DNA from: Candidatus Magasanikiibacteriota bacterium
GTDB lineage: Bacteria; Patescibacteriota; Patescibacteriia; Magasanikbacterales; GWA2-37-8
DNA: 64,000 nucleotides
Assembly (NCBI GenBank): GCA_041665405.1
Contig: JBAYIZ010000001.1
Span: 26,618-90,617, forward strand
Reading direction: 5' to 3'
A program made the translations under genes and the position numbers. Below the pieces are notes generated by a model, which saw nothing but the letters and a program-made list of their open reading frames with translations, was not told the DNA's origin and searched no databases. Positions 6,784 to 59,941 of this stretch are shown in pieces (positions within the stretch are counted from its first letter, which is position 1; the number at the start of each line of letters is the position of its first letter).

Positions 6784-8328
6784 ATGCCCGAGCAAAAAAC
6801 AACTGTACTAGTAATCCTTGATGGTTGGGGTATTGGACAAACGGAAAATACTCTTGATCCAATCGTGCCAGAACATGCGCCGAATTATTTTGATTTTTTA
6901 AAAAAGTATCCCAACACCCAATTGGAGGCCAGTGCAGAAGCGGTAGGATTGTTCAAAAAACAGGAAGGAAATAGTGAAGCTGGTCATATCAATTTGGGAG
7001 CGGGGAGAGTAGTGAAGCAAGACGCTTTGTATGTTAGTGATGCGATAGCCGACGGCACTTTTTTCAAGAATAATGCTTTTTATCAAGCGTTGCATCATGT
7101 CAAAAAATATAATACAGCCGTGCATTTGATGGGGTTGTTGTCCAATCATAATAGCGCGCATTCATGCCCAGAGCATTTGTACGCTTTGTTGGAATTAATG
7201 AAAAAAGAAAAGATAAAAAAAGTTTTTTTGCATTTGTTTACAGACGGTCGTGACTCTGCTCCACATGATGCTGTGAATCATCTCAAAAAATTGAGAGACC
7301 ATATGAGTGGTGACGAAAAAATTGCTACTGTTATGGGGAGGTTGTATGCGATGGATAGAAATAAAAATTGGCATAGGACAAAAATGGCATACGAGGCAAT
7401 GACATTAGGGAAAGGCAAACTTGTGAGTACTGCCGAAGAAGCTCTTTTGAAAGCATATGATTGTGGGGAGTCGGATGAGTTTATTTCGCCGACCATAATT
7501 GTTGATCAAAATAAACCGATAGCCACAATAAAAAATAATGATGCAATCTTTTTTTTCAATCTTCGCAGTGATCGGGCGCGTGAAATAACAAAAGCATTCG
7601 TGCAACCAGATTTTGAAAAAGTAAATCCTGGGGCTTTCAAGCGAACACGCATACCAAAAAATACTAGGTTTGTCGCGTTGACTGATTTTGGTCCGGATTT
7701 ACCAGGTGTGTTGACCGCGTATCCCAGTCGCGATGTAAATAATAGTTTAGTACAGTTTTTGTGTCCCAAAAAACAACTATATGTGGCAGAATCAGAAAAA
7801 TTTGCTCACGTCACTTATTTCTTCAATGGTGGTTATGCTCAACATTTTTGTGATGAAGAATGGGTTAAAATACCAACTCCATCCGCAGAAAATTATGAAA
7901 ACAAACCAGAGATGAACGCCAAAGGAGTGGGTGATAAAGTAGTAGAGGCAATAGAATCTGGCAAATACGAATTTATTGTTTGTAATTTTGCCAACGCCGA
8001 TATGGTTGGCCATACTGGCAATTTCAAAGCTGCTCAAGAGGCAGTACAAGCCATTGATGAACAGTTGGGTAGAATAGTTCAGGCTTTGACAGCTGTTAAA
8101 GGGCAAGGTATAATCACAGCCGATCACGGCAATATTGAAGAGATGATAAATATGCGAACTGGCGGTATTGATACAGAACATTCATTGAACCCAGTACCCT
8201 GTATTATAATAGGTTCAGGCGCCAAGCAGATCAAAAAATCTGGCAAACTCGCTGATGTGGCCCCAACTTTGATCAAAATGATGGGGCTAAAAAAACCAAA
8301 AGAAATGACTGGTAAATCATTGATATAG
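6784..8328 (+). CDS. gpmI: 2,3-bisphosphoglycerate-independent phosphoglycerate mutase (iPGM), copy 1
   Basis: iPGM motifs ILDGWG and catalytic Ser region GNSEAGHINLGAGR. Confidence 0.9.
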   Translation: MPEQKTTVLVILDGWGIGQTENTLDPIVPEHAPNYFDFLKKYPNTQLEASAEAVGLFKKQEGNSEAGHINLGAGRVVKQDALYVSDAIADGTFFKNNAFYQALHHVKKYNTAVHLMGLLSNHNSAHSCPEHLYALLELMKKEKIKKVFLHLFTDGRDSAPHDAVNHLKKLRDHMSGDEKIATVMGRLYAMDRNKNWHRTKMAYEAMTLGKGKLVSTAEEALLKAYDCGESDEFISPTIIVDQNKPIATIKNNDAIFFFNLRSDRAREITKAFVQPDFEKVNPGAFKRTRIPKNTRFVALTDFGPDLPGVLTAYPSRDVNNSLVQFLCPKKQLYVAESEKFAHVTYFFNGGYAQHFCDEEWVKIPTPSAENYENKPEMNAKGVGDKVVEAIESGKYEFIVCNFANADMVGHTGNFKAAQEAVQAIDEQLGRIVQALTAVKGQGIITADHGNIEEMINMRTGGIDTEHSLNPVPCIIIGSGAKQIKKSGKLADVAPTLIKMMGLKKPKEMTGKSLI

Positions 8329-8329
8329 T

Positions 8330-9907
8330 ATGGCTTATAAATTAGTAACTCTTGTAATTTTTGACGGCTTGGGTGTGGCGCCTTCATCGGATGGCAACGC
8401 AGTTACACATGCCAAGATGACCAATTTTCAAAATTACATAAAAAATTATCCAGTGATGACTGTATATGCTTCAGGAAATGAGGTTGGTTTGTCTTTTGGA
8501 GAAATGGGTAATTCTGAAGTTGGACATTTGAATATTGGTGCGGGCCGAGTTTATTACCAGTCTTGCCCGCGTATTAATAATGAAATTGGCAATGGTGAAT
8601 TTTTCAAGAATCCAGCTTTTTTGGCGGCGGTAGAAAATGTCAAAAAAAATAAAACCAATCTTCATCTAGTGGGTTTGCTCGGGACAGGAAATGTGCACGC
8701 TAGCGATAGCCATTTGTATGCGCTCTTGGATTTTTGTGCACAAAATAAAATAGGTGATAGAGTATTTGTTCATGGAGTTTTGGACGGGCGAGATGCTCTA
8801 TATAATTCTGGAAAAACTTTTGTGACAGATTTGTTGGAAAAAATGAGAGTCACTAAAACTGGACAGTTGGCTTCATTGTCTGGACGTTTTTATGCGTTGG
8901 ACAGAGATAATCGTTGGGATCGTTGTGAAAAAGCTTACCAGGCCATGGCTTTGGGCAAGGCTGAGCGTAGTGGTGATGATCCGCTGAAAGTGATTGACGA
9001 TTCATATGCAGTAAAAAATTATGATGAGGAATTTACTCCAACTGTGATTACCAAAAAAGGTAAACCGGTTGTAACTATAAAAGAAAATGATTCAGTAATA
9101 TTTTTTAATTTCCGTCCTGATAGAGCACGTGAATTGACCAAAGCTTTTGTATTACCTGGGTTTAATAAATTTGAAAGAGAATATATAAAGAATTTGTTTT
9201 TTGTAACGATGACAGAATTTGAAAAAGATCTACCAGTGATGGTGGCTTATCCGCCGATTGTCGTACATAATTCATTGGCCGAAACAGTAAGTAAAGCCGG
9301 TAAAAAACAATTTCATGTGGCCGAGACAGAAAAATATGCGCATATTACTTTCTTTTTAAATGGTACAGTAGAAGATCCGTTTATTGGAGAAGATCGAATG
9401 ATCGTACCGTCACCAAAAGTATCTTCATATGCGGAAGCTCCAGAGATGTCTGCCGCTTCAGTTGCCAAAGAAGCGGTCAAAGCAATCGACAGTGGGAAGT
9501 ATGATTTGATCGCTCTAAATTTTGCCAATGCTGATATGGTCGGACATACAGGTGATTTGGCCGCCACAATAAAAGGTTGTGAAGCCGCTGATAAAGCATT
9601 TGGAGAAGTTGTTCATCATACTTTGGCTCAAGGTGGAGTGGTAGTGGTGACAGCTGATCATGGGAATGCAGAAGAAATTGTAAATTTACAAACAGGAGAA
9701 ATAGATAAAGAACACTCTACCAATCCTGTGCCACTATTAGTTATTAGTAAAGAATTTGAGGGGCAAGCCGGTCCAGCTGGTGAACCACCAGAAGGCGATT
9801 TGAGTCTGATGCATCCAGTGGGGGTACTCGCCGATGTAGCGCCGACAGTTCTGAGTCTTATGGGTGTGCAAATACCGTCGGAGATGACTGGGACGGCATT
9901 GATATAA
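8330..9907 (+). CDS. gpmI: iPGM paralog, copy 2 (tandem duplicate)
   Basis: Same family motifs (IFDGLG, GNSEVGHLNIGAGR); clearly diverged from copy 1. Confidence 0.85.
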   Translation: MAYKLVTLVIFDGLGVAPSSDGNAVTHAKMTNFQNYIKNYPVMTVYASGNEVGLSFGEMGNSEVGHLNIGAGRVYYQSCPRINNEIGNGEFFKNPAFLAAVENVKKNKTNLHLVGLLGTGNVHASDSHLYALLDFCAQNKIGDRVFVHGVLDGRDALYNSGKTFVTDLLEKMRVTKTGQLASLSGRFYALDRDNRWDRCEKAYQAMALGKAERSGDDPLKVIDDSYAVKNYDEEFTPTVITKKGKPVVTIKENDSVIFFNFRPDRARELTKAFVLPGFNKFEREYIKNLFFVTMTEFEKDLPVMVAYPPIVVHNSLAETVSKAGKKQFHVAETEKYAHITFFLNGTVEDPFIGEDRMIVPSPKVSSYAEAPEMSAASVAKEAVKAIDSGKYDLIALNFANADMVGHTGDLAATIKGCEAADKAFGEVVHHTLAQGGVVVVTADHGNAEEIVNLQTGEIDKEHSTNPVPLLVISKEFEGQAGPAGEPPEGDLSLMHPVGVLADVAPTVLSLMGVQIPSEMTGTALI

Positions 9908-32582: not shown

Positions 32583-32921
32583 ATGTCTTTACTTTTACGT
32601 TGGTTAATTAGTGCTGGTTCATTAATGTTGGTTGCGTATGTAGTTCCAGGAATTAGTGTAGCCAGTTTTTATTCGGCTTTGATCGCGGCCTTGGTTTTGG
32701 GTTTGGTAAACGCACTTATTCGTCCGATTATTATTTTGCTGACATTGCCAGTAAACATTTTGACACTGGGTCTTTTTACTTTGGTTATTAACGCTTTATT
32801 GTTTTGGTTAGTTGCCACCATGGTTAAGGGTTTTACAGTAAGTGGTTTTATGCCGGCATTTTTGGGAGCTCTGGTAGTATGTGTGGTTAGTTGGGTGTTA
32901 AATGGAATTTTTAATAAATAA
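32583..32921 (+). CDS. DUF360/YvlD-type 4-TM membrane protein (phage-holin-IV-like superfamily)
   Basis: Characteristic small 4-TM pattern (LVAYVVPGISV..., LVNALIRPIIILLTLP). Confidence 0.65.
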   Translation: MSLLLRWLISAGSLMLVAYVVPGISVASFYSALIAALVLGLVNALIRPIIILLTLPVNILTLGLFTLVINALLFWLVATMVKGFTVSGFMPAFLGALVVCVVSWVLNGIFNK

Positions 32922-32928
32922 TTTTGTT

Positions 32929-33504
32929 ATGAACAGAACGATAAAATTATTAATATTCTCTTCTATTTTTGTAGACACCGGGTTTGGTTTCATCGGTCCG
33001 ATGTTGTCTATTTTTATAAAAGAAAATTTAATTGGTGGTACTATTTTTACGGCCGGTATGGCCAGTGCTGTTTATTTGATAGTGAAATCAGTATTACAAT
33101 TACCGTTTGCCCATTATGTCGATAAACATGATGACAAAGTAAAATGGCTATTGGTTGGTACGGCGGCTATGGCGGTGGTACCTTTTATGTATATATTTTG
33201 TGCCAATGTATGGTACATTTATCTGGCACAAATATTTTTGGGTTTGGGTTCAGCATTGGCTTATCCGACCTGGGCGGGTTTGTGGAGTACACATCTAGAC
33301 AAAAGAAAAGAAAGTTATGAATGGAGTTTGTATTCCACTTTGACCGGTTTGGGTACAGCTATTATTGCCAGTTTGGGAGCGGCTATTGCTCAGTGGTATA
33401 GTTTTGAAGCAGCTTTTGCCCTAGTTGGTTTATTAGCAGTAATTGGTTTTGTGATATTATTAGGCTTACAAAAAAGTGATGTAAAGTTATTGAATAAAAT
33501 GTAG
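32929..33504 (+). CDS. MFS-like membrane protein, half-size (~6 TM); possibly truncated or split
   Basis: Six hydrophobic helices with a motif-A-like loop (AHYVDKHDDKVKWLL) after TM2; only ~190 aa. Confidence 0.4.
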   Translation: MNRTIKLLIFSSIFVDTGFGFIGPMLSIFIKENLIGGTIFTAGMASAVYLIVKSVLQLPFAHYVDKHDDKVKWLLVGTAAMAVVPFMYIFCANVWYIYLAQIFLGLGSALAYPTWAGLWSTHLDKRKESYEWSLYSTLTGLGTAIIASLGAAIAQWYSFEAAFALVGLLAVIGFVILLGLQKSDVKLLNKM

Positions 33505-33671: not shown

Positions 33672-34364
33672 ATGAATAAAAATAAAGTTGTAGTATTGTC
33701 TTTGGGAGGTTCGTTAATTGTCCCAAAAACAGGTTTTGATATTATTTTTTTAAAAAAATTTAAGAATTTTGTTTTAAAGCGTATTCGACTGGGTGAAAGA
33801 TTTATCATTGTGTGTGGTGGGGGAAATACGGCACGAGTATATCAAGAAGGGGTTAAAGCAGTGAGTGAATTGACCAGTGAAGATGTGGATTGGATCGGCA
33901 TACACTCTACTCGTCTCAACGCTCATTTTATGCGTACTATTTTTCGTAAATGGGCACATCCAGTAGTAGTAAAAAATCCAACTATAAAACTGAAATGGAA
34001 AAGTCCGATTTTAATAGCTGGTGGTTGGAAGCCAGGGTGGTCAACGGATTATGATGCAGTCAAGTTGGCAGAATTGTATGGAGCCAAACAAGTGATCAAT
34101 TTATCCAATGTGGAATATGTTTACGACAAAGATCCAAATAAATTTAATGATGCTAAAAGAATAGAAAATATTAATTGGAAAGATTTTAGAAAAATCGTCG
34201 GAAATAAATGGATTCCAGGTGCCAATTTACCGTTTGATCCAATAGCTAGTAAAGAAGCGCAGAAAGATGGATTGACCGTTGCTATAATTAAGGGTGACAA
34301 TCTGGAAGAAATTGTAAAGGTAATAAATGGGGGAGAAAAGATTGTTGGAACCATTATTAAATAA
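33672..34364 (+). CDS. pyrH: Uridylate (UMP) kinase, archaeal-type amino-acid-kinase fold
   Basis: VVLSLGGSLI..., IVCGGGNTAR, GIHSTRLNA motifs; ~230 aa like archaeal PyrH. Confidence 0.7.
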   Translation: MNKNKVVVLSLGGSLIVPKTGFDIIFLKKFKNFVLKRIRLGERFIIVCGGGNTARVYQEGVKAVSELTSEDVDWIGIHSTRLNAHFMRTIFRKWAHPVVVKNPTIKLKWKSPILIAGGWKPGWSTDYDAVKLAELYGAKQVINLSNVEYVYDKDPNKFNDAKRIENINWKDFRKIVGNKWIPGANLPFDPIASKEAQKDGLTVAIIKGDNLEEIVKVINGGEKIVGTIIK

Positions 34365-34376
34365 TATTAATAAACA

Positions 34377-34406
34377 AAAAATCACCTTCTATGGTGATTT
34401 TTTGTT
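34377..34406 (+). terminator. Intrinsic terminator (AAAATCACC..GGTGATTTTTT)
   Basis: Perfect 9-bp stem plus T-run after the pyrH-like gene. Confidence 0.6.
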
Positions 34407-34490
34407 TTCCTCAAAAGAATAAAATAATCTTCTAAGGGAAGCCAGCGCCGACCGGTTGTGGAACCGGCCGGCGCTGTTGGCTACAGTAGG

Positions 34491-34577
34491 CTACGGCAGG
34501 TGGTTGAAGATGCCGACAATCACCGGCACAACAAGAGCTGCCAAGCACACGACGGTAATTTTCTGTCTTTTGGTCAT
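34491..34577 (-). CDS. Putative 28-aa hydrophobic peptide (MTKRQKITVVCLAALVVPVIVGIFNHLP) with Shine-Dalgarno site and GC-rich terminator, inside GC-rich islet 1
   Basis: GAGGAcctcATG start context; single TM-like segment; strong GC hairpin (34443-34476) immediately downstream. Confidence 0.3.
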   Translation of the reverse strand: MTKRQKITVVCLAALVVPVIVGIFNHLP

Positions 34578-34925
34578 GAGGTCCTCAACGATTCAGTCGA
34601 TTTTGATTGCCCACCGCGCGGAGTTGCGACGAGGGATATCTAATTTGATAAATATCAAACCAAATACCCCTGTCGCAATCGTTTGTGTCCTTTCTGTAGA
34701 ATGATATGGTTTGGCTAATTAGCAAAACCAGATACTTTTAAAAGAACGATGAATTATAATATGCTAAAAACGGGTAAAATGTCAATGGTTGAGGCTAGAA
34801 AGTTGACTTACGAGTAAATTAGTGATATTGTCTGCGCAAGTATCCGGACAGGCAACTATGCTCTGTGCCGGGTCATCATGACCGTATGCGACTTCAATGT
34901 CGTTGATTCACTGCAAGGAGACCCC

Positions 34926-35189
34926 ATGAATCGTCTTCGTGAGAAGCTGTCCCTGTTGTTGGCGCTGACCTTCAAGAACGACGTCACGGCCAAGGAGCTC
35001 GACGATGGCTTCACCGAGGTGAGCGACGCCTTCGACGCCGACGTGAACGAGGCGTTCCCGCCCGAGGACACCAGCGGCGACGGCACGGCCGCCACCGCCG
35101 AGGTCGCCGAGACGGTCGCCGAAGCACCCGCCCCGGCCCCCGAGCCCGATCCCGCGCCCGAGGCCGATGACAAGGGCGTCGAGCCGTAG
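34926..35189 (+). CDS. Small acidic protein with Ala/Pro/Glu-rich tail, encoded in GC-rich islet 1
   Basis: AAGGAG SD before ATG; strong GC third-position bias in this frame only; alternative upstream ATG at 34878. Confidence 0.45.
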   Translation: MNRLREKLSLLLALTFKNDVTAKELDDGFTEVSDAFDADVNEAFPPEDTSGDGTAATAEVAETVAEAPAPAPEPDPAPEADDKGVEP

Positions 35190-35266
35190 TCGCCGCGTAG
35201 CGGTCATGTGAGGCCGAGTGGGGAGGACTTCCTCCCCGCTCGGTCCTCGCAGCTACAAATCTGCTC

Positions 35267-35295
35267 TTGACAAAATTTACTCAATCCGTTATTAT
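35267..35295 (+). promoter_or_regulatory. Consensus promoter TTGACA - 17 nt - TATTAT upstream of rplJ
   Basis: Exact -35 hexamer and good -10 with 17-nt spacer. Confidence 0.55.
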
Positions 35296-35426
35296 ATCCG
35301 CACCATAGACAGCAGGTGGCGAAAGCCTTAATTACCTGCCGAGGTACAAAAGCTATTTTAGTATAGGTCGATTTGTACTGTATTATCTGTCTGTGGAAAC
35401 ACAGATTTTTTTGTTAAAAAATCACT
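35296..35426 (+). promoter_or_regulatory. rplJ 5' leader with hairpins (candidate L10 autoregulatory leader)
   Basis: Hairpins GCAGGT..ACCTGC and TCTGTG-gaaa-CACAGA between the promoter and rplJ start. Confidence 0.4.
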
Positions 35427-35945
35427 ATGCCAAAAACAAGACAACAAAAAATAAAAACCATTGAGTCCTTGACTGGTGGCTTGAAAGACAGCAAAGGTGC
35501 TGTATTTGCCAGTTTTGCTGGTTTGAAAGTAGCTGACTTCGAAGAGTTGCGCAAACAAGCTCGCTCTGAAAATGTTCAGGTACAGGTAGCCAAAAAAACA
35601 TTGGTAAAAAGAGTGTTTGACGATCTGGGCGTTTCTGCCGATCCAAAAACATTTGCCGGTGGCGTGGTTACTTTGTCCGGTGCGGATGAAGTTACTGCGG
35701 CCAAAGTATTTGGTAACTTTGCCAAAACTCATGAGACAGTTTCAATTTTCGGTGGTATCTTGGAAGGTAAATTTATTGATGCGATGAGCGTCAAACATTT
35801 GTCTACTTTACCAAGTAAACAACAATTGTTGGGTCAATTGGTTGGTACTCTCAACGCACCAGTATCTGGTTTCGTGAATGTACTGGCTGGCAACCTGCGC
35901 AATTTAGTAAATGTTCTTAATAATATTAAAACAGCAAAAGTTTAA
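35427..35945 (+). CDS. rplJ: 50S ribosomal protein L10
   Basis: L10 family similarity over the full length; followed by rplL. Confidence 0.9.
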   Translation: MPKTRQQKIKTIESLTGGLKDSKGAVFASFAGLKVADFEELRKQARSENVQVQVAKKTLVKRVFDDLGVSADPKTFAGGVVTLSGADEVTAAKVFGNFAKTHETVSIFGGILEGKFIDAMSVKHLSTLPSKQQLLGQLVGTLNAPVSGFVNVLAGNLRNLVNVLNNIKTAKV

Positions 35946-35960
35946 TTAATATATAAATTT

Positions 35961-36365
35961 ATGACAGAAGAAAAAAATGTTGTAGTTCCAGAAAAGTTTA
36001 AAGCTTTCGTGGAACAAGTAGAAAAAATGTCCGTTTTAGATTTGGCCGAATTGGTCAAAGTATTGGAAGAGAAATTTGGTGTTTCCGCTGCCGCTCCAGC
36101 TATGATGATGGCCGCCGCTCCTGCCGCTGGTGGCGCTGCTGTCACAGAAGAGAAAACAGAATTCAATGTTGAATTGACTGATGCCGGTGCAAACAAGATC
36201 AATGTGATCAAAGCAGTGAAAGAAGTAACTGGTTTGGGTTTGGCTGATGCCAAAGCTTTGGTAGACGGCGCTCCAAAAATGATCAAAGAAGGTCTAAAGA
36301 AAGACGAAGCCGAAGCTATGAAGAAAAAGATTGAGGAAGCTGGTGGTAAAGTAACTTTGAAATAA
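35961..36365 (+). CDS. rplL: 50S ribosomal protein L7/L12
   Basis: Ala-rich hinge and conserved C-terminal domain ([28 protein letters not shown]...GGKVTLK). Confidence 0.95.
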
Positions 36366-36391
36366 TACCTCTCAGCTCAATAAAAACAAAA

Positions 36392-36418
36392 ACACGACCA
36401 ATTTGGTCGTGTTTTTTT
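36392..36418. terminator. Bidirectional intrinsic terminator between rplL and the convergent gene
   Basis: ACACGACC-aattt-GGTCGTGT hairpin flanked by A-run and T-run. Confidence 0.6.
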
Positions 36419-38762
36419 ATAGATTGATTTCCCAGAGTTTGTTATTATCCAAAATGTAGGCAATTTTATTTTCTTCGTCGATTATCATACTGGATGGGTT
36501 TTTCCATTCTTTGGCAGTAATTTGGTTTTTTAGACGGCCATCTTTTTGCAGAATAATCAAACGTTTGTCGGTATTGTCCAATAAATAAATATATTGTTTA
36601 TCAGTGTATGTCCAAATTTGGCTACCTGTTTTTAACGCTGGGTCTAACCCAGAAATTTCGAATGGTTGTTTATTGCCGGCAGTCAGTTTTTCGATTGATC
36701 CATCGGTGCGACTGACAAACATGTCACCGTCGGTGGTGAGTGATAACCCGTCTTTTATATTAACCGAAATATCTTTTATCCACTCTTTACCCAAGCCAAA
36801 ACCGGTTTTTATATTGTCATGTTTATAAATTTGGTTATTATTTGTGTCTAAACTATAAAGACGACGATTGTAAATAATTAGGCTACTAATTTTAGCATCG
36901 GTTTTGGGATAAGAAACATCAGCTGATTCAAGGGAAAAGTTTTTTGGATTGTAGAATGTGATGGTTTTATTATCAGACAAAATGGCCGCGTAATCATTTT
37001 CTTTTGGTATCGCTAGGTCGTTGAAATTGTTTAGGCTGGTGTTTAGATATTTTGGTTGTTTGGTTAACAAATCATAAATAACAATGGTAGATGAATTGGA
37101 AGGTAATACCAAAATTTGATTATTTATTTTGGCTAGGTGAGCCAAATTCATTGCTTGGGTACTCAACTCGAAAATCAGATCTGGTGTCGCAATTATTTCT
37201 TTGCGGATTTGAGCAAGAGTAGTGTTTATTTGCTGGTTGAACTCGTCGCATTCTTTCTTATATTTTTTACAATTTAACTGAGAGATCAAATTTTTTACTA
37301 TCTGAGATTCGTTGAGGGCGGTAATATCATCTTTGTAAATAGTCGCGCTTTCAGCGATGTCTTTGTGGGCGATAATATCTCTAATGATTTCCTGGGATTG
37401 TTTTTCTTGGGCCAATCGTACTTGGGTAGATCGAATAAAGAGAATACTAGAGATAAAAACGATTAGTATCAAGGCGCTCAAGGTAAAGAAAATCTTGGTT
37501 GTTCTTGGTAAGTTTTTAATTCCCAATTTAAAGATATACCATTGTCTTGACCAATTTTCTAAAATATTACGACGACGATTTTGATAATTGGTAGCGACAA
37601 AAAATAGTAATGATATTCCGTGTCCAAGACTTATCAACAAATTGAAGACAAGTAATAAAAATAGCCAAATAAAGTGAATAGTATATTTGATTCCTATCCA
37701 AGTCATTTTTAAACTAGCATTTAGATATTGTTTGTAAATGTCAAATCTTTGGGGAGTGGGTGGTTTGGCATGATACTGTCTCAGATGAGCTGAGTTGATT
37801 TCCGCTGGCATGGTTGGTGGTAAATTCTTGGGTTGTTTTGATGTTTCATCCTCAAACTCGTCCTGAAAAGCGGTTTTAATTCGGTTGTTCATTTTTGGAA
37901 ACAGTGAAGGTGACATAGTGCTGGCAGTATTTTTTTCTGTTGCAAATAGGTTGTGCAACGATTTCACCGATCCACCTTTTGGAAGAGGCTGTCTCTTGGC
38001 GCTGGTCATGATTGATGGTCTTTCTTCGTTGAGATGGATGACCATACCGCCAAATGAAAATTCGTTTCGGATGTCGGATAATACACGCTCGATATGCTGG
38101 GCACTCTGACGAGATGGGCGAGTAGTAATAATTTTTTGCAGACGATCATCACTAAAGTATTCATTTAGCTGGGGCGTACCAATAAATAGGAAGTCATTAG
38201 GGGTGATTTTACCCTCGACTATTTGAGAGAAAAGTTGGTCGTTGGTTTCACCCTGGTTATCAGAAATCAGATCCATTTTTTTGTATAGGTCATCTTTGGT
38301 TTTATAAAAAAGCAACATTTTGGGATTGCCACAGAATGAAAAAACAATATCCTGTTCTTTGATGACTCCAACGACACAATGACGCTTGATCTGTTCTTCT
38401 TCCTCCAGTTGGTTTTCTCGGTTGATATTTTTTAAAACTGTTTCTAATGAATTCTCACCAATGTTTTGTGGTGCTTCATAATAACGAGATTCTATCTCAT
38501 CAATAATATTTTGTAGTTTGACGATGTCTTTGGTAGTGGTGAAATTTAGTTCACAAACAGCAAAAAAATAACCCTTTTGTCTCTCTTTTTCATTTGAGGG
38601 TTCGGTAATATGAAGGAGCACATGGGACTTTTCCCGGTTACCACCTTCAATAAAAAACTCGTGCAATTGTAGCTTGTAATCCATAAACGCTTGTAGTATA
38701 CTATATTTATTGTCGATAGTCCAATAAATATTAGGGGTAAAAGTGGGTAGCTTTCGGCTCAT
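36417..38762 (-). CDS. Large hypothetical membrane protein: N-terminal cytoplasmic domain, central TM segments, C-terminal beta-propeller-like repeats
   Basis: Hydrophobic helices around residues 340-440; repeated Y/N-rich beta-strand segments at the C-terminus; no firm family match. Confidence 0.45.
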   Translation of the reverse strand: MSRKLPTFTPNIYWTIDNKYSILQAFMDYKLQLHEFFIEGGNREKSHVLLHITEPSNEKERQKGYFFAVCELNFTTTKDIVKLQNIIDEIESRYYEAPQNIGENSLETVLKNINRENQLEEEEQIKRHCVVGVIKEQDIVFSFCGNPKMLLFYKTKDDLYKKMDLISDNQGETNDQLFSQIVEGKITPNDFLFIGTPQLNEYFSDDRLQKIITTRPSRQSAQHIERVLSDIRNEFSFGGMVIHLNEERPSIMTSAKRQPLPKGGSVKSLHNLFATEKNTASTMSPSLFPKMNNRIKTAFQDEFEDETSKQPKNLPPTMPAEINSAHLRQYHAKPPTPQRFDIYKQYLNASLKMTWIGIKYTIHFIWLFLLLVFNLLISLGHGISLLFFVATNYQNRRRNILENWSRQWYIFKLGIKNLPRTTKIFFTLSALILIVFISSILFIRSTQVRLAQEKQSQEIIRDIIAHKDIAESATIYKDDITALNESQIVKNLISQLNCKKYKKECDEFNQQINTTLAQIRKEIIATPDLIFELSTQAMNLAHLAKINNQILVLPSNSSTIVIYDLLTKQPKYLNTSLNNFNDLAIPKENDYAAILSDNKTITFYNPKNFSLESADVSYPKTDAKISSLIIYNRRLYSLDTNNNQIYKHDNIKTGFGLGKEWIKDISVNIKDGLSLTTDGDMFVSRTDGSIEKLTAGNKQPFEISGLDPALKTGSQIWTYTDKQYIYLLDNTDKRLIILQKDGRLKNQITAKEWKNPSSMIIDEENKIAYILDNNKLWEINL

Positions 38763-44987: not shown

Positions 44988-45171
44988 TATTTAATAAGCC
45001 TCTGGCTTTTATCTGCATTCGTTCGGAAATTAAAAACTATAGTTTTTAATTTCTCTCACTCATTTTGATAATAAAAAATCCTCGATAGAATCGGGGATTT
45101 TTTAACCCATTAAATTCAGTTCTCTCTTGAATTTAATGGGAGGGAGGGGCCGAAGCGCCGAGAACCTCCGC

Positions 45172-45651
45172 CTAGAGGGAATTCTCGTCGTGGCACCTCC
45201 GGAAATAGAGTTCGCCGAGATGTTGTGCCATGTCCGCGAGACGGTTGGCAGTTTCATCATCGGTCGTTAGATGGCGAACGTTGCGCAGATTTCTCACCTG
45301 CGCTCTGATTTCGTCAGTCGTTGGTGGAACGGATGCCGTTAGGTAGGCCAGTACGTAGGTCGCATGGACCTCATACCAACCACCGAAGCCGACGTTCGAC
45401 CGGAATAGCTCCTGGGCAGTGATCCTTGCCCAGTCATTCCCGGTCAATTTCCACCAAATAAGCGCGATGTCAGCGAGACTATCTCTCGTTGTCACCGCAT
45501 CCTCTAGCTCGCTAGTGGCCAACTCCTGTTGGATGTAGGTTGCTCCGCCCAATTCTTCCAGGGTTTTCCTGGCTTCTTGGTCGGATCCTCTCCGCCACAA
45601 GTTTGTCACCTTGCAGTGAACAAACTCGAGCTGCCTATTTCTTGCGCTCAT
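45172..45651 (-). CDS. Hypothetical protein encoded in GC-rich islet 2
   Basis: 159-aa ORF with composition unlike its neighbours; 13-bp perfect inverted repeat (45108-45143) just past its 3' end. Confidence 0.45.
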   Translation of the reverse strand: MSARNRQLEFVHCKVTNLWRRGSDQEARKTLEELGGATYIQQELATSELEDAVTTRDSLADIALIWWKLTGNDWARITAQELFRSNVGFGGWYEVHATYVLAYLTASVPPTTDEIRAQVRNLRNVRHLTTDDETANRLADMAQHLGELYFRRCHDENSL

Positions 45652-45805
45652 GTTTGTCCTCTACAACGTACCGCTCCATGCGGTAAACATTAGACAGTAT
45701 CATAAATTACTGTTTTTGTCAACGGAGTCTGTGCACAACTTTTGACTTTTTTGCTAAAATGTGGTATTATTAAAATAAATAAATAGATTAAATTAAATTT
45801 ATAAT

Positions 45806-55413: not shown

Positions 55414-55486
55414 GCCGTTGTAGCTCAGTTGGTAGAGCATCTCCATGGTAAGGAGAAGGTCCGCGGTTCAAATCCGCGTAACGGCT
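55414..55486 (+). tRNA. tRNA-Thr (anticodon GGU)
   Basis: Cloverleaf GCCGTTG..TAACGGC-T; anticodon loop ATGGTAA; similar to E. coli tRNA-Thr(GGU). Confidence 0.85.
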
Positions 55487-55587
55487 CTAGTTAAGATACC
55501 ATTGCGGTATCTTTCTTTGATAAATATAGCCTAGATAAGACTTTGACAATCTGGAATCTATGTGGTAGAATCTAAACTGTTATATTA

Positions 55588-55660
55588 GCCGGGTTAGCTC
55601 AGTTGGTAGAGCAGCACTTTTGTAAAGTGCGGGTCGCAGGTTCGAGTCCTGTTCCCGGCT
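55588..55660 (+). tRNA. tRNA-Thr (anticodon UGU)
   Basis: Cloverleaf GCCGGGT..CCCGGC-T; anticodon stem GCACT/AGTGC; loop TTTGTAA. Confidence 0.85.
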
Positions 55661-55674
55661 CTTTTTTACAAGTT

Positions 55675-56067
55675 ATGCATACTAAAATTAAAGGGGATAT
55701 AGGGGAATTATTAGTAGCGGCAGATCTTTTAGAAAAAGGGTGGATGGTTTCGCTGCCAATCAGCGAAAACACCAGATACGACTTGATAATCGAAAAAAAT
55801 GGAAAAATAAAACGGGTACAAGTAAAAGCGGTTGTACCAAAGAATGGGGCAATGATTATCAATTGTCGGTCGTCAAATAATTGGAATGTTATAAACTACA
55901 CAAAGAAAGATTTTGAAATTTTAGCCGCAGTGGATATAATTTCAAAAAATGTTTATTATATACCAGTAAAATGTATAAATAGAAGATGCATTAATTTACG
56001 ACTAACAGCGTCGAAAAATAGACAAGAGAAAAATATAAATTTAGCAAAGAGTTTTTTGAAAATATAA
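55675..56067 (+). CDS. PD-(D/E)XK-type nuclease-like small protein, wedged between tRNA-Thr and intron-containing tRNA-Tyr
   Basis: GDIGE...YDLII..EKNGKIKRVQVK resembles a G-E / D / E-x-K restriction-endonuclease-like core; true start taken as ATG 55675. Confidence 0.45.
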   Translation: MHTKIKGDIGELLVAADLLEKGWMVSLPISENTRYDLIIEKNGKIKRVQVKAVVPKNGAMIINCRSSNNWNVINYTKKDFEILAAVDIISKNVYYIPVKCINRRCINLRLTASKNRQEKNINLAKSFLKI

Positions 56068-56072
56068 TTATT

Positions 56073-56338
56073 GGGCAGATACCAAAGTGGTTAAATGGGA
56101 CAGACTGTGAACAATTGCAGCTCTTAGGGGAAACCCTAGGATGAACTCTCTGGGATAACGGTGAAGGCTAATGGGGGTGCTAATACCGTGGGAACTCCGA
56201 AATGTTCGGGGAGCGCCGTAGAGACTAGATACCAGAGTACCCTTCGTGGGTAAAGATATAGTCCATGCCGTAAGGAAACTTATGGATAAGTGAAATCTGT
56301 TGGCTCCGCCTTCGAAGGTTCGAATCCTTCTCTGCCCA
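56073..56338 (+). tRNA. tRNA-Tyr (anticodon GUA) interrupted by a group I intron in the anticodon loop
   Basis: Exons reconstitute GGGCAGATACCAAAGTGGTTAAATGGGACAGACTGT|AAATCTGTTGGCTCCGCCTTCGAAGGTTCGAATCCTTCTCTGCCCA, closely matching bacterial tRNA-Tyr including the long variable arm. Confidence 0.8.
56109..56292 (+). ncRNA. Group I intron (~184 nt, subgroup-IC3-like, no ORF)
   Basis: Starts G and ends G; IGS GCAG can pair with the exon end CUGU (G-U at splice site); P2 TAGGG-GAAA-CCCTA; CGTAGAGACTAGA matches the P7/J6-7 core of the Azoarcus tRNA-Ile intron. Confidence 0.7.
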
Positions 56339-56394
56339 CTTAGACCGCCATAGCTTTTGCGAAGGCAGTCCAAAATAAATTATTAATTGAACAT

Positions 56395-56547
56395 ATGTCA
56401 CAAGAAAAATTGGCAAAATTGGAGTGTTCAGAATGTAAGCGTGTGAGTTATTTTACAACTCGCAACAAAAAGCTAAAGACTCGCTTGCAATTGAAAAAAC
56501 ACTGCAAACATTGCAAAAAACACAATGAATTTAAGGAAACAAAATAA
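56395..56547 (+). CDS. rpmG: 50S ribosomal protein L33
   Basis: Translation MSQEKLAKLECSECKRVSYFTTRNKKLKTRLQLKKHCKHCKKHNEFKETK has the L33 C4 zinc ribbon and NK...L.LKK..C..C motif; 50 aa, below the ORF-track cutoff. Confidence 0.8.
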   Translation: MSQEKLAKLECSECKRVSYFTTRNKKLKTRLQLKKHCKHCKKHNEFKETK

Positions 56548-56559
56548 GCCTTTTGGTTT

Positions 56560-57345
56560 ATGAGTTTTTTTACCACTCTATACAATAGTTTGTATAATTT
56601 TAAATGGCTTCGTGACCAGAAGAATAATTCGAGCTGGGCTTGGGGCTATTTTTTTCTATTGATATTTTTGGTGGCTGGTTTATCGACTGTTTCTCTGGGG
56701 TATAAATATTTTGAAGAAGCTCCAAAATTAAAGCAGATGGTATATAGTGAATTGCCTGAATTTCAAGCAGAAGTAAAGGATGGGCAATTACAAGTGACTG
56801 GTATAGAACAGCCATATATAAAAAGTTTTGAAAATTTTGCTATCGTGGTAGATACAGTAGCGACTGGTACACTGGATATAAAAAGTTTTGTAAAACAAGA
56901 TACACAGTCAGTATTGTTGGTCACCAAAGATAATTTTGAAGTATATGACGGTCAAAGTAAAACCATCAAGAAACAATCAGTAAAAGAATTTAATAATTCC
57001 AAAACAGATCGAGCTGATGTTTTGAAGATTGCTGATAGTGCATTTAGCAATAAGATTATCTGGATGGTAATAATTTTCTGTTTTGTTATATTGTTTATAT
57101 TTTTTGTTGTTAGTAATTTGCTCAACGTGCTGTTTATCAGTTATTTGTTTTACTCTATTACGAAATATAAAAAGTTGGGCTGGAAATTTAAGGAAGTATT
57201 TACTGTTGGTTTGTTTACTGTGACCTTGCCATTAATTCTCACTCAAGCTGCTCCAAGTTTTTATCTAAATTGGGTATTCATGTTGGTGTTTGCTGGTTGG
57301 ATGTATTTGGTGGTGATTAAAAAAGATAAGGTGGTAAAAGAATAG
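56560..57345 (+). CDS. Hypothetical membrane protein
   Basis: TM helices at the N-terminus and in the C-terminal third; no motif. Confidence 0.4.
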   Translation: MSFFTTLYNSLYNFKWLRDQKNNSSWAWGYFFLLIFLVAGLSTVSLGYKYFEEAPKLKQMVYSELPEFQAEVKDGQLQVTGIEQPYIKSFENFAIVVDTVATGTLDIKSFVKQDTQSVLLVTKDNFEVYDGQSKTIKKQSVKEFNNSKTDRADVLKIADSAFSNKIIWMVIIFCFVILFIFFVVSNLLNVLFISYLFYSITKYKKLGWKFKEVFTVGLFTVTLPLILTQAAPSFYLNWVFMLVFAGWMYLVVIKKDKVVKE

Positions 57346-57378
57346 CAAATAGTGTATAGTATTTTTGCAGACAAACAT

Positions 57379-57449
57379 AGGGGCGTCGTATAGTGGTAGT
57401 ACTTCTCTCTCCAAAAGAGATTGCGTGGGTTCGATTCCTACCGCCCCTG
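57379..57449 (+). tRNA. tRNA-Trp (anticodon CCA)
   Basis: AGGGGCG..CGCCCCT-G acceptor; anticodon loop CTCCAAA; close to E. coli tRNA-Trp. Confidence 0.85.
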
Positions 57450-57455
57450 CTAAGT

Positions 57456-57486
57456 AAAACCAGATGAATTATAATCTGGTTTTTTG
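57456..57486 (+). terminator. Intrinsic terminator (AAACCAGAT..ATCTGGTTTTTT)
   Basis: 9-bp stem plus T-run after tRNA-Trp. Confidence 0.6.
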
Positions 57487-57537
57487 ATTGACGGTTAACC
57501 ATAAAAAATCGTATACTATACAGTATTATATACAAAC

Positions 57538-58773
57538 ATGAATCAAGCCCACGCACTGAAAATTCTCCAATCTGGCGATAACGTTTTTCTCACCGGTTCT
57601 GCCGGAAGCGGAAAGACTTTTTTATTGAATCAATTCATTGATTATCTCAAAAGCAACAAAACAAAAGTGGGAATAACGGCGTCTACTGGTATCGCCGCCA
57701 CCCATTTGAACGGGCGTACTATTCATTCTTGGTGTGGGATGGGGATAGCCAAAAAAATGACCAAAAAACAAATTAACAAGGTTTTGAAACGGAAAGATTT
57801 GTTTGATCGTATAAAAAGCGCTCAGGTTTTAATCATTGATGAGATCTCGATGTTGGACGCGGCTAGTTTGGATTTGGTAGATAAAATTTGCAAGGCGGCC
57901 AAAAATCCGTTTATGCCATTTGGAGGAATGCAAATTGTTTTGTGTGGTGATTTTTTTCAACTACCACCTATTGGTAAAGATGCAAAATTTTCGTTTCAGG
58001 CATTTTCTTGGGAGGAAGCCGGTATTAAGGTTTGTTATTTGGATGAACAGTTTCGCCAAGACGATTCGGAGTTTTTAAAAGTTTTAAATAAAATTCGTAC
58101 CAATGAAGCAGGTGAAAAAGAATTGGCAATTCTAAAAAATAGATTACATAAAAAAGTTACTCATTTGCCAAAGGTCACCAAACTCTATACTCACAATGTA
58201 AATGTGGATATGCTCAATGAATTGGAGCTTTCAAATATTGAACAGCCAGAAGAAATATTTCAGATGATCGAACAAGGTCCACAAGATCTCGTTGAATTTT
58301 TAAAAAAGAGCTATCCAGTTGTGTCTGCATTAAAATTAAAAGTAGGCGCGATAGTGATGTTTATTAAAAATAATTTCGAAGCTGGGTATGTAAACGGCAC
58401 TCTAGGACAAGTGGTGGATTTTGATGAAGATGGCTTGCCAGTAATTAAAACAAAAAATAAAAATCGTTTGGTGGCCAAACCAGTAAGTTGGAATATTGAA
58501 GAAGACGAAACAATATTAGCGAGTATCAAACAAGTGCCTCTGCGTTTGGCTTGGGCGATAACCGTACACAAAAGTCAGGGGATGAGTTTGGATGCCGCTG
58601 AAATTGATTTATCCAAATCATTTGAACGGGGGATGGGGTATGTGGCTTTGTCACGTGTGCGTGCACTAGATGGTATTTGTCTGTTGGGTATAAATGAGAT
58701 GGCTTTGAAGGTGAATGAAGCAGTTGTAAAAAAAGATAAGGAGTTCAAGAAGTTATCCGCGAAAAATAAATGA
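57538..58773 (+). CDS. PIF1/RecD-family ATP-dependent DNA helicase
   Basis: Walker A GSAGSGKT, Walker B LIIDEISM, C-terminal AITVHKSQG motif. Confidence 0.8.
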   Translation: MNQAHALKILQSGDNVFLTGSAGSGKTFLLNQFIDYLKSNKTKVGITASTGIAATHLNGRTIHSWCGMGIAKKMTKKQINKVLKRKDLFDRIKSAQVLIIDEISMLDAASLDLVDKICKAAKNPFMPFGGMQIVLCGDFFQLPPIGKDAKFSFQAFSWEEAGIKVCYLDEQFRQDDSEFLKVLNKIRTNEAGEKELAILKNRLHKKVTHLPKVTKLYTHNVNVDMLNELELSNIEQPEEIFQMIEQGPQDLVEFLKKSYPVVSALKLKVGAIVMFIKNNFEAGYVNGTLGQVVDFDEDGLPVIKTKNKNRLVAKPVSWNIEEDETILASIKQVPLRLAWAITVHKSQGMSLDAAEIDLSKSFERGMGYVALSRVRALDGICLLGINEMALKVNEAVVKKDKEFKKLSAKNK

Positions 58774-58850
58774 AGTATTTATTTAGTTATTAGCAACTGA
58801 TATACTAGAGTAGTATTAGAAAAATGAATTTAGTTTTTATTAGATTATAT

Positions 58851-59261
58851 ATGTCTAATGGATCAAGTATTCGTATACCTGAACACGAGCTAAACATAAC
58901 ATTCGCGCGGTCTGGTGGCGCGGGTGGGCAAAATGTAAACAAAACATCGACTAAGGCTATCGTCCATTGGTCTATTAGTCGTTCAAAAGTTTTGTCTTGG
59001 GAGGAAAAAGTACTAGTAAGAACCAAATTGGCAAATAGAATAAATAATAATGACGAAGTAGTGATAATGTCCGAGGAAGAACGTTCGCAATCGCAAAATC
59101 GTGCGCTGGCTGTAGCGCGATTGCAGATGTTGGTGGCGCGTGCTTTGCATGTGCCAAAATCACGACGACCGACTCGGCCAACGAAAGCATCAAAAGTACG
59201 TCGTATTGAATCAAAAAAAATCCGCTCACTAGTGAAAGAGGGAAGGAAAGCGATAGAATAG
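58851..59261 (+). CDS. arfB: ArfB-like peptidyl-tRNA hydrolase (class I release-factor GGQ domain with basic tail)
   Basis: GGQ motif in SGGAGGQNVNKTSTKA and Arg/Lys-rich C-terminus; ORF-track start at 58824 possible. Confidence 0.7.
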   Translation: MSNGSSIRIPEHELNITFARSGGAGGQNVNKTSTKAIVHWSISRSKVLSWEEKVLVRTKLANRINNNDEVVIMSEEERSQSQNRALAVARLQMLVARALHVPKSRRPTRPTKASKVRRIESKKIRSLVKEGRKAIE

Positions 59262-59262
59262 T

Positions 59263-59514
59263 ATGTATTATCTCTACATACTTGAATGTGCAGACAAGAC
59301 ATTGTATACTGGTATTACTGTGGATTTGGATCGTCGGGTAAATGAGCATAATATGTCGAAATTGGGGGCCAAATATACGCATGCGCGACGACCGGTGAAA
59401 TTGGTATATTCCAAAAAGTTTAGAAATCGCTCTTTGGCATCAAAGGCAGAGAGTAAGATAAAACAAATGACAAGAGAGGAAAAAATAGAAGTAGTTCATT
59501 CGTTCAAAAAATAA
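59263..59514 (+). CDS. GIY-YIG-domain protein (YhbQ/UPF0213-like)
   Basis: YYLYILECADKTLYTGITVDLDRRVNEHN is a textbook GIY-YIG N-terminus. Confidence 0.8.
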   Translation: MYYLYILECADKTLYTGITVDLDRRVNEHNMSKLGAKYTHARRPVKLVYSKKFRNRSLASKAESKIKQMTREEKIEVVHSFKK

Positions 59515-59616
59515 AAAACGTCTTTAGACGATGGGTATTGGTGATTGTGTCTGGTCTGTGCGATCACATTCATCGTTTGGAGGCGAATCAGGTTGTTCTT
59601 TTCCCAGGAGGTGCTC

Positions 59617-59859
59617 ATGAGCCGGGTGTATTGCGGGTGCTCAGACGAACCCATTGCCAGGATCGACGATCGGAAGGATCTTTCCTTCAGTGGGCTTTGT
59701 GAGGCCTGTTACCAGAGGGGTGGAGATTACGGACGGCCGGTGGACGTCCCTGTCATCGTCCGCCCTGCCTCGGGTACTGCGGATGTCCTTCCTTTTGTGC
59801 CCAAGAGGAAGACGACGCAGAAGGAGAGGAGGGCCACCGCGGTGTTGAAGGTGGGCTAG
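59617..59859 (+). CDS. Small Cys-containing protein (putative 4-Cys zinc ribbon CxC...CxxC with basic tail), encoded in GC-rich islet 3
   Basis: GGAGGtgctcATG SD; 80 aa; GC-rich unlike neighbours; alternative upstream start at 59545. Confidence 0.4.
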   Translation: MSRVYCGCSDEPIARIDDRKDLSFSGLCEACYQRGGDYGRPVDVPVIVRPASGTADVLPFVPKRKTTQKERRATAVLKVG

Positions 59860-59941
59860 CTCCACGTAGTCAGAGTTCTGTGGCCGACTCGTTAAACAAA
59901 GGCCACACAGATATAAAATAACAATTTTAAAAAAGCTTTAT

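Follow-up and report, generated by a model that had tools for sequence, protein, structure and literature searches.

The islet between pyrH and rplJ

The DNA analysed in this study (referred to as the window) is a 64-kb stretch of contig JBAYIZ010000001.1 from a Candidatus Magasanikiibacteriota bacterium, and its strongest compositional outlier, by guanine-plus-cytosine (GC) content in sliding 150-bp windows, was an islet at 34440-35255 between the core genes pyrH and rplJ-rplL (referred to as islet 1). Its GC content reached a maximum of 0.787, approximately 6.7 standard deviations above the window mean (0.374; standard deviation of 0.062). The initial annotation, which had proposed such a sliding-window analysis and described approximately 0.8 kb of strongly GC-rich DNA, was correct with regard to outlier status, but not to uniformity: GC was 0.50-0.60 at 34400-34600, 0.31-0.36 at 34650-34850, and 0.80 at 35050-35150. 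Islet 1 consists of two GC-rich pieces of approximately 200 and 420 bp (blocks A and B, respectively) on either side of an AT-rich core of 190 bp. The deviation from the host in codon usage and base composition by which genomic islands are recognised was found in islet 1. All of the features described below are listed in Table 1.

Block A carried a tiny open reading frame (ORF) on the minus strand. Its 28-aa product had a basic N-terminus (MTKRQK) followed by one 18-residue hydrophobic span, and GC at the first, second, and third codon positions was 0.52, 0.31, and 0.69, respectively. The 5' untranslated region (UTR) was approximately 165 nt in length and contained a long hairpin. A GC-only hairpin, located 14 nt past the stop codon and without a U tract, had a minimum free energy (MFE) of -32.7 kcal/mol (z-score of -5.8 against shuffled controls). 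No family was found for the 28-aa ORF in Pfam, NCBIfam, or PADLOC, and block A had no DNA similarity to any other fetched pyrH-rplJ locus. The peptide resembles the signal/anchor segments that open the cargo proteins of relatives (see below), and may be either a membrane protein of small size or what is left of a longer gene.

Block B carried an 87-aa ORF on the plus strand with GC of 0.72, 0.46, and 0.90 at the three codon positions, in comparison with a third-position GC (GC3) of 0.26-0.36 in pyrH, rplJ, and rplL. As far as composition can tell, the order GC3>GC1>GC2 is the coding signature expected of very GC-rich genes. The protein was acidic (22 D+E versus 6 K+R), and a structural model from this single sequence gave helices at residues 2-16 and 22-43, with a predicted local distance difference test score (pLDDT) of 81-88, and a disordered A/P/E/D tail. 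The hexanucleotide repeat encoding the P-E/P-A part of this tail is prone to replication slippage, which would permit rapid changes in the length of the ORF. Downstream, a GC hairpin with its flanks had an MFE of -50.9 kcal/mol (z-score of -8.4 against shuffled controls) and ended 24 nt before the -35 box of rplJ.

In a search of 5.8 billion protein clusters, the 87-aa protein matched only itself, and nothing meaningful was found in Pfam, NCBIfam, or PADLOC; in Rfam, searched at E<=10 on 34300-35450, only the L10 leader was above chance. Residues 47-58 (DTSGDGTAATAE) fit the canonical 12-residue EF-hand loop except for A at position 8, and the best PDB matches were calmodulin EF-hands through this segment, with weak E-values of 0.013-0.05. 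No Pfam EF-hand was detected at E<=1, model confidence was low at DTSGDGTAATAE, and the ORF of a sister species (L040; see below) did not contain the loop. A relationship with the ribosomal stalk proteins P1/P2, considered for the helical head, acidic A/P/E tail, and position beside rplJ, was rejected: Pfam Ribosomal_60s was not detected, and no P1/P2 chain was found in the best 60 of 140 PDB matches (E<=10).

The ORFs and hairpins of islet 1 partly agreed with the initial annotation. The A/P/E-rich plus-strand ORF with extreme GC3 and an AAGGAG Shine-Dalgarno sequence (SD), the tiny hydrophobic peptide gene on the other strand, the GC-only hairpin at 34443-34476, and the terminator after pyrH and rplJ promoter at the two borders were all found where they had been described. 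The GGGGAGG-ACTT-CCTCCCC hairpin also existed, but its core was located at 35220-35237, approximately 13 nt to the right of the position given.

These features suggest the following organization. The AT-rich core would supply two back-to-back sigma70-type promoters, from which the two genes would be transcribed independently. The leftward transcript would start near 34750, pass through a leader motif and the long 5'-UTR hairpin, encode the 28-aa single-pass membrane-type peptide, and stop at the GC-only hairpin, which faces the pyrH terminator; the latter could be bidirectional, to judge from its T/A runs. The rightward transcript would start near 34838 with a conserved 5' stem-loop, encode the 87-aa acidic protein with its two-helix head and disordered tail, and stop at the hairpin at 35214-35243, which may also shield the rplJ promoter and L10 leader from read-through.

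Table 1. Predicted features of islet 1 and its flanks, with R1 hairpin copies in related loci (in the coordinates of those loci)
Feature	Position	Strand	Details
pyrH, archaeal-type UMP kinase	33672-34364	+	left core gene of slot; TIGR02076 182.5 bits (cut-off 158), Pfam AA_kinase
pyrH intrinsic terminator	34372-34407	both	perfect 15-bp AT-rich stem, T/A runs on either side
GC-rich block A	34440-34640	-	hairpin, 28-aa ORF, and proximal 5' UTR; GC 0.50-0.60 (100-bp windows)
GC-only hairpin CAGCGCCGACCGGTT/AACCGGCCGGCGCTG	34443-34457/34462-34476	-	presumed terminator; 15-nt arms, 93% complementary
28-aa ORF MTKRQKITVVCLAALVVPVIVGIFNHLP	34491-34577	-	SD GAGGA at 34582-34586
Long 5'-UTR stem-loop	34624-34678	-	UTR fold -43.5 kcal/mol, z-score -4.6
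AT-rich core	34641-34831	both	divergent promoters; GC 0.31-0.36
Leader motif TCGTTCTTTTAA (family form CGTTCGTTCYTTAAC)	34738-34749	-	directly downstream of minus -10 box
Minus-gene sigma70-like promoter	34756-34785	-	TTGACA-18-TATTAT; 11/12 matches
Plus-gene sigma70-like promoter	34803-34831	+	TTGACT-17-TATTGT; 9/12 matches, TG before -10
GC-rich block B	34832-35255	+	5' UTR, 87-aa ORF, and terminator hairpin; GC up to 0.80
5'-UTR stem-loop, loop AACUAUGC	34844-34871	+	same fold in L040
87-aa ORF	34926-35189	+	AAGGAG at 34915-34920, 5 nt before ATG
CCCGAG x4.8 hexanucleotide repeat	35139-35167	+	encodes P-E/P-A tail
GC hairpin GGGGAGG/CCTCCCC	35214-35243	+	presumed terminator and insulator; no U tract
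rplJ promoter	35267-35295	+	sigma70-like, 11/12
L10 leader RF00557	35285-35420	+	75 bits
rplJ	35427-35945	+	right core gene of slot
rplL	35961-36365	+	right core gene of slot
R1 hairpin, L009	5112-5174		
R1 hairpin, L010	4506-4568		
R1 hairpin, L041	3301-3362		
R1 hairpin, L045	3307-3369		
R1 hairpin, L044	314-373		
R1 hairpin, L004	1218-1275		

The pyrH-rplJ spacer in relatives

For comparison, rplJ loci were drawn from species-representative genomes, metagenomes, and exact-protein look-ups (labelled L with a number). In the Magasanikbacteria loci reaching far enough upstream, the order was xseA-xseB-holin-like gene-(major facilitator superfamily (MFS) gene)-pyrH-rplJ-rplL, followed by a large convergent ORF; the exception was L048/L049, with a 1,265-aa ORF before rplJ. 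Across the sequences compared, the spacer between pyrH and rplJ varied between species. Nine loci (L005, L006, L007, L008, L013, L019, L022, L024, and L033) had a short spacer of 167-280 bp, with room just for a terminator, promoter, and L10 leader, and an occupied spacer of 740-2270 bp was found in L003, L004, L009-L012, L014/L015/L029, L020/L041-43, L021, L044, and L045-47. Several occupied spacers reached 0.50-0.68 GC. Of the minus-strand cargo, most was GC-rich, and its GC3 of 0.64-0.83 contrasted with a genome GC of 35-41%. The cargo comprised an SPFH/Band_7 protein with a lipoprotein (L004), a Stig1-like Cys-rich protein (L010), a Cys-rich lipoprotein (L012), lipoproteins (L020/L041 and L045), transmembrane proteins (L003/L021/L044 and L009), and two AT-rich plus-strand genes (L011 and L014/15). 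In an all-against-all comparison of the cargo, L003/L021 was the only related pair. Presence and absence at the same site among relatives, as in genomic islands, were observed, and the slot showed the three marks of a flexible islet: a fixed position between core genes, unrelated cargo, and conserved flanks. The 'empty' spacers of approximately 170-280 bp in nine relatives and the composition alien to the backbone both agreed with the initial annotation in that islet 1 is added DNA.

The flanks of the cargo were common to several loci. At the end opposite to the promoter, a 63-nt hairpin (model R1) was located 3' of unrelated cargo genes in L009, L010, L020/L041, L045/L047, L003/L044, and L004, and consisted of two stems (a GC-rich outer and an AT-rich inner stem) with an asymmetric internal loop. 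The R1 covariance model was built from four copies, not including those of L003/L044 and L004, and recovered both of the latter (36.9 and 23.5 bits, respectively). No other copy was found elsewhere in 288 kb, except for a weak match in L011 (21.5 bits, E = 0.034) that was taken as noise, and the window contained none. L009 and L010 had near-identical R1 hairpins and unrelated cargo. Since the flanks were conserved around such swapped contents, we infer that slot cargo is exchanged by homologous recombination in these flanks.

The promoter side was shared more directly with the window. The pattern CGTTC[CT]TT[AT]A occurred six times in 308 kb (the window and fetched loci), five of them in the pyrH-rplJ spacer. 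These five copies, in the window, L003, L004, L012, and L021, were all on the minus strand behind a -10 box, and an alignment of the five loci gave a common CCATTGACA, the -10 box, CGTTCGTTCYTTAAC, and then a small hairpin. The genes behind this common promoter and leader were unrelated, with three cargo types in the four loci besides the window. The plus-gene promoter of the window aligned with the promoter TTGACA..TAATGT of L040. A search of viral contigs with the 15-mer leader motif gave 104 matches, which were judged to be compatible with chance. Because the promoter and leader motif are common to relatives, the AT-rich core is, by sequence comparison, native to the clade, and the single foreign block assumed in the initial annotation was not found.

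Block B had a counterpart in the sister species L040, the metagenome of which (IMG 3300014208) was sampled in 2016 from well GW1, also a source of the window's sequence (see below). Identity between the two was 95% (amino acids) and 89% (DNA) in rplJ, and 65% (amino acids) in pyrH, and synonymous divergence (dS) was 1.8, 1.7, and 2.1 in pyrH, xseA, and the holin-like gene, respectively. The 511-bp spacer of L040 had a GC content of 0.54-0.70 in the middle and did not contain the minus-strand unit. Its 5' stem-loop had the same AACUAUGC loop and the same fold as that of the window; in one stem segment (ACAG/CUGU versus GUGG/CCAC), three of four pairs had changed on both sides with pairing kept, in a comparison of two sequences only. 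An acidic ORF of 40-56 aa followed, ending in ...DPVPNDDGKPEE, with a GC3 of 0.68 and an SD, and the first 30 nt of the terminator hairpin were identical to 35197-35226 of the window at 27 positions. High-identity tracts such as recent exchange leaves were not found in block B between the two species.

From this comparison, the framework of block B appears orthologous in the sister species, and was either already present before the two lineages diverged or passed from one to the other. A recent origin of the islet was not supported, since a homologous block B framework was present in L040 across a backbone dS of approximately 1.7-2. The initial annotation had held that conservation of the islet at this locus in related AT-rich genomes would speak against its proposals, and such conservation was found in part: for block B in L040, not for block A.

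These results suggested that a hypervariable gene slot lies between pyrH and the rplJ promoter, and that islet 1, with its two small divergent accessory genes, is probably what occupies it at present; the islet may be called ordinary in kind and interesting in detail. Because the cargo of relatives is almost always a small lipoprotein, transmembrane protein, or Cys-rich secreted protein, its products may, by analogy, act at the envelope or in cell-cell interaction, which is a tentative guess. The pyrH-rplJ spacer would then be a compact slot with conserved expression signals, between which small genes (envelope, secreted, or orphan) that have no relationship to one another replace each other, and such genes would be a likely interface of these episymbiotic bacteria with their partners.

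GC-rich genes elsewhere in the window and clade

The window contained two further GC-rich islets. Islet 2 (45130-45700; GC of 0.51-0.57) carried a 159-aa ORF at 45172-45651 on the minus strand, encoding an all-helical protein for which structure prediction was uncertain (pLDDT of 56). No homologue was found by a word-indexed search, nor was there a match in plasmids (tblastn) or viral contigs. An exhaustive HMMER scan gave ten relatives at 23-40% identity, seven of which were at 33-40%. Two of these occupied the same slot, between DUF4012-MreB-GT4 and a large ORF, in other Magasanikbacteria. Same-slot orthologues (34-40% identity) had a GC content of 0.52-0.56, versus 0.36-0.38 in the backbone, with a GC3 of approximately 0.6, and the hairpins downstream of the gene were conserved in them. 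The alignment of this small, unannotated family contained the conserved motif FVHR.VTN...LANL.FVWW..TGD...MLAY...YFRRC. GGAGG...CCTCC hairpins (35222-35235 and 45139-45169) were confined to two places, the 3' end of block B and that of islet 2; this pattern had three matches in the window versus 0.24 expected, and the islet-2 version was kept in relatives. Islet 3 (59530-59900; up to 0.64 GC), between a GIY-YIG gene and an Nramp gene, carried an 80-aa ORF on the plus strand (59617-59859) with a CxC...CxxC motif, the exact ORF not being in the protein collection. Nothing meaningful was found for the 159-aa and 80-aa ORFs in Pfam, NCBIfam, or PADLOC. The three islets of the window had no sequence or ends in common.

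Within the pyrH-rplJ slot, the lipoproteins of L041 and L045 were only 33% identical, in comparison with 79% for pyrH and 84% for rplJ, and their GC3 was 0.65-0.72 versus 0.29-0.37. In three independent families, fast evolution together with lasting high GC is apparent from these sequences, whereas relaxed constraint under a mutation bias toward AT would predict the reverse. Since three fast-evolving families stay GC-rich, high GC in this clade is not evidence of recent import, and looks like a long-lived property of this class of genes. It is an evolutionary puzzle that, in three independent families, genes under weak constraint have kept a high GC content over a synonymous divergence of approximately 2 although the genome around them is AT-rich.

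One speculative account, which we regard as doubtful, is that Magasanikbacteria keep small, fast-evolving accessory genes in fixed 'plug-in' slots, each bounded by a conserved promoter and leader at one end and by a conserved hairpin at the opposite end, and that a GC-biased process keeps or makes the cargo GC-rich within an AT-rich genome. Such a process could consist of GC-biased gene conversion at hot spots of recombination, of targeted hypermutation, or of continual re-seeding from a shared GC-rich gene pool; GC-biased gene conversion is a documented candidate force in bacteria (PMC4450053). If this account were true, GC-rich orphan islets in the candidate phyla radiation (CPR) would represent an integrase-free system of cassette exchange and diversification, rather than foreign DNA.

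Alternative explanations, comparable systems, and neighbouring genes

A sharp compositional change within a metagenome-assembled genome (MAG), such as that of islet 1, may arise when reads of a high-GC organism are joined to a contig, in this case of Magasanikbacteria, and the initial annotation had raised such a chimera. The assembly is authentic. A 3,836-bp JGI contig (IMG 3300037810), from a 2017 sample of the landfill-adjacent groundwater well GW1 (listed in a landfill study), was 100% identical to 33693-37528, and a 1,212-bp Logan contig (SRR6484324) was 100% identical to 34118-35329, both across the two islet junctions; the 87-aa ORF was also identical to NCBI protein MFA6423743.1 (locus tag WCV83_00320). 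Because two other assemblies matched both junctions at 100%, so that three agree base for base, a chimera was excluded; native promoter DNA inside the islet and the homologous islet of L040 at the same locus, in a metagenome from a different year, leave it a negligible probability. Recent horizontal transfer of block A, block B, or both from a high-GC donor (a host, partner, or unsampled mobile element), with the DNA inserted beside the native promoter and not yet drifted to an AT-rich composition, is a more serious candidate. It would account for a GC3 of 0.90 against a backbone of approximately 0.3, GC-only hairpins without U tracts, presence and absence of slot contents among relatives, two orphan ORFs, and a block A that has no counterpart in any relative. 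However, searches of 5.8 billion protein clusters and of phages, plasmids, and viral contigs gave no donor: blastn of islet 1 against phages and plasmids gave only a low-complexity plasmid match (Kocuria; 10% coverage and 72% identity), and neither the 87-aa protein nor the terminator sequence had a match in viral contigs. The actinobacterial or host donor suggested in the initial annotation was not borne out by these searches; nothing besides composition points to an actinobacterial origin. Mobility genes were also lacking: across the whole window, neither an integrase or transposase nor a reverse transcriptase or phage gene was detected (a Pfam pass included). The nearest tRNA was 7.6 kb away, and islet 1 had no border repeats. 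The block B framework common to L040 across a dS of approximately 1.7-2, without a high-identity tract, and the other GC-rich slot genes of the clade, which are demonstrably old and still GC-rich, also speak against recent import, which we consider unlikely. A foreign origin in the past is possible, especially for block A. Literature searches on Magasanikbacteria, Patescibacteria, and CPR gave nothing relevant on horizontal transfer or on islands of high GC.

The ORFs themselves may be incidental, with the GC-rich DNA functioning as structured RNA or DNA, such as a small RNA or a transcriptional insulator or roadblock that separates pyrH from the rplJ promoter. Conservation between the window and L040 lies in the promoter, 5' stem-loop, and terminator hairpin and not in the ORF, the hairpins are exceptionally stable (z-scores of -5.8 to -8.4), and long ORFs arise by chance in several frames of GC-rich DNA. 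Nevertheless, this explanation appears improbable: the plus frame has the coding order of GC3>GC1>GC2 and a well-spaced AAGGAG, the repeat unit of 6 nt preserves the reading frame, an acidic ORF with an SD is kept in both species, no Rfam family was above chance, many relatives lack any insert, and in islet 2, which is analogous, the encoded protein belongs to a clearly conserved family. Block A may also be regarded as a type I toxin-antitoxin-like module, in which a toxic hydrophobic peptide with a structured 5' UTR is controlled by an antisense RNA. The 28-aa peptide with its basic N-terminus, one transmembrane span, and SD, the 5' UTR of approximately 165 nt with its long hairpin, and a weak terminator-like site at 34551-34567, within the ORF but on the other strand, are in line with this module, and in peptide size, single hydrophobic helix, and long structured 5' UTR, block A is similar to the type I toxin peptides TisB, Fst, and Ibs/Ldr-like. 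While the peptide and structured UTR expected of such modules were found, the antisense RNA was not: no plus-strand promoter-like site was present in 34440-34640. In addition, searches of Pfam, NCBIfam, PADLOC, and Rfam matched neither a known toxin nor a known antitoxin, whether protein or RNA, and the same promoter and leader drive ordinary lipoprotein or transmembrane genes in relatives, which makes a toxin-antitoxin module very improbable.

Several points weigh against islet 1 as the current content of an exchangeable slot. The 87-aa protein and the acidic ORF of L040 have no detectable protein similarity (E = 22), and the orthology proposed for block B relies on where it lies and on its promoter, 5' hairpin, terminator, and base composition, as well as on a single sister genome from the same well, with which lateral exchange is possible. 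No counterpart of block A with its 28-aa ORF was found anywhere; this block may have been imported recently, or may be the remnant of a longer gene. Long residence under AT-biased mutation would hardly leave a GC3 of 0.90 unless some force maintained it. Recombination in the flanks is proposed from the pattern of conserved flanks and swapped cargo, and we infer, from predicted signals, the transcription, translation, and termination of both islet genes.

Replacement-type flexible genomic islets, or integration hot spots between core genes, are known in Prochlorococcus, Alteromonas, and enterobacteria. The pyrH-rplJ slot is similar to these in its fixed position between core genes, empty and occupied states, unrelated cargo (mostly orphans and small proteins of the envelope or secreted ones), conserved flanks, and the dispensability of an integrase. 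It differs in its size (0.5-2 kb, one or two genes), in flanks that form a ready-made expression frame through the shared promoter and leader and the 63-nt hairpin, and in cargo that is systematically GC-richer than the genome, also in old orthologues. Islet 1 shares atypical composition, presence and absence, and orphan genes with classical GC-atypical genomic islands; however, it has no tRNA target, direct repeats, integrase or transposase, or donor, and the composition of homologous islets has not decayed over a backbone dS of approximately 2. In relation to integron cassettes (including single attC sites without an integrase), the loci of relatives are similar in having an imperfect long hairpin 3' of a small orphan ORF, and the shared upstream promoter of the slot is reminiscent of Pc/attI. 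In contrast, the window has no IntI or cassette array, and its hairpins are perfect GC stems without RYYYAAC/GTTRRRY cores; the 63-nt hairpin of relatives is specific to the pyrH-rplJ locus. An integron-core-like GTTCAAT...GTTGAAC was present at the base of R1 in L041, the only such case among the hairpins of relatives. A sharp GC jump in a CPR MAG is easily dismissed as contamination or host transfer, neither of which was indicated here, and curation pipelines that trim regions with GC jumps would discard real accessory genes.

The initial annotation had placed islet 1 where rplK-rplA normally precede rplJ. The L11 and L1 genes were indeed missing, with no rplK, rplA, or nusG in the whole window, but a displacement was not found: pyrH-rplJ-rplL is conserved across the fetched Magasanikbacteria loci apart from L048/L049, and nusG-rplK-rplA were located immediately before rplJ only in outgroup loci (Marinamargulisbacteria, Rickettsiales, Terriglobia, and others), which also served as a positive control for this search. 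The absence of L11 and L1 genes is, because of this distribution, a trait of the clade and unrelated to the islet. The rplJ promoter and L10 leader were intact next to islet 1.

The remainder of the window encoded housekeeping functions only, including tRNA synthetases, glycolysis enzymes, MreB, and ribosome recycling factor. Another variable spot was located 1 kb upstream of the slot: a 200-aa, half-size MFS-like gene (32902-33504), between the holin-like gene and pyrH, was present in some relatives only. Tandem paralogues of cofactor-independent phosphoglycerate mutase (iPGM_N and Metalloenzyme domains) were found at 6784-8328 and 8330-9907. The cluster at 55414-59514, just before islet 3, comprised tRNA-Thr(ggt), tRNA-Thr(tgt), DUF1189, and tRNA-Trp, together with a Pif1-like helicase (57538-58773), an RF-1-domain (ArfB-like) protein, and an 83-aa GIY-YIG protein, and its tRNA-Thr(tgt) was overlapped by a PD-(D/E)XK_5 ORF (55603-56067).

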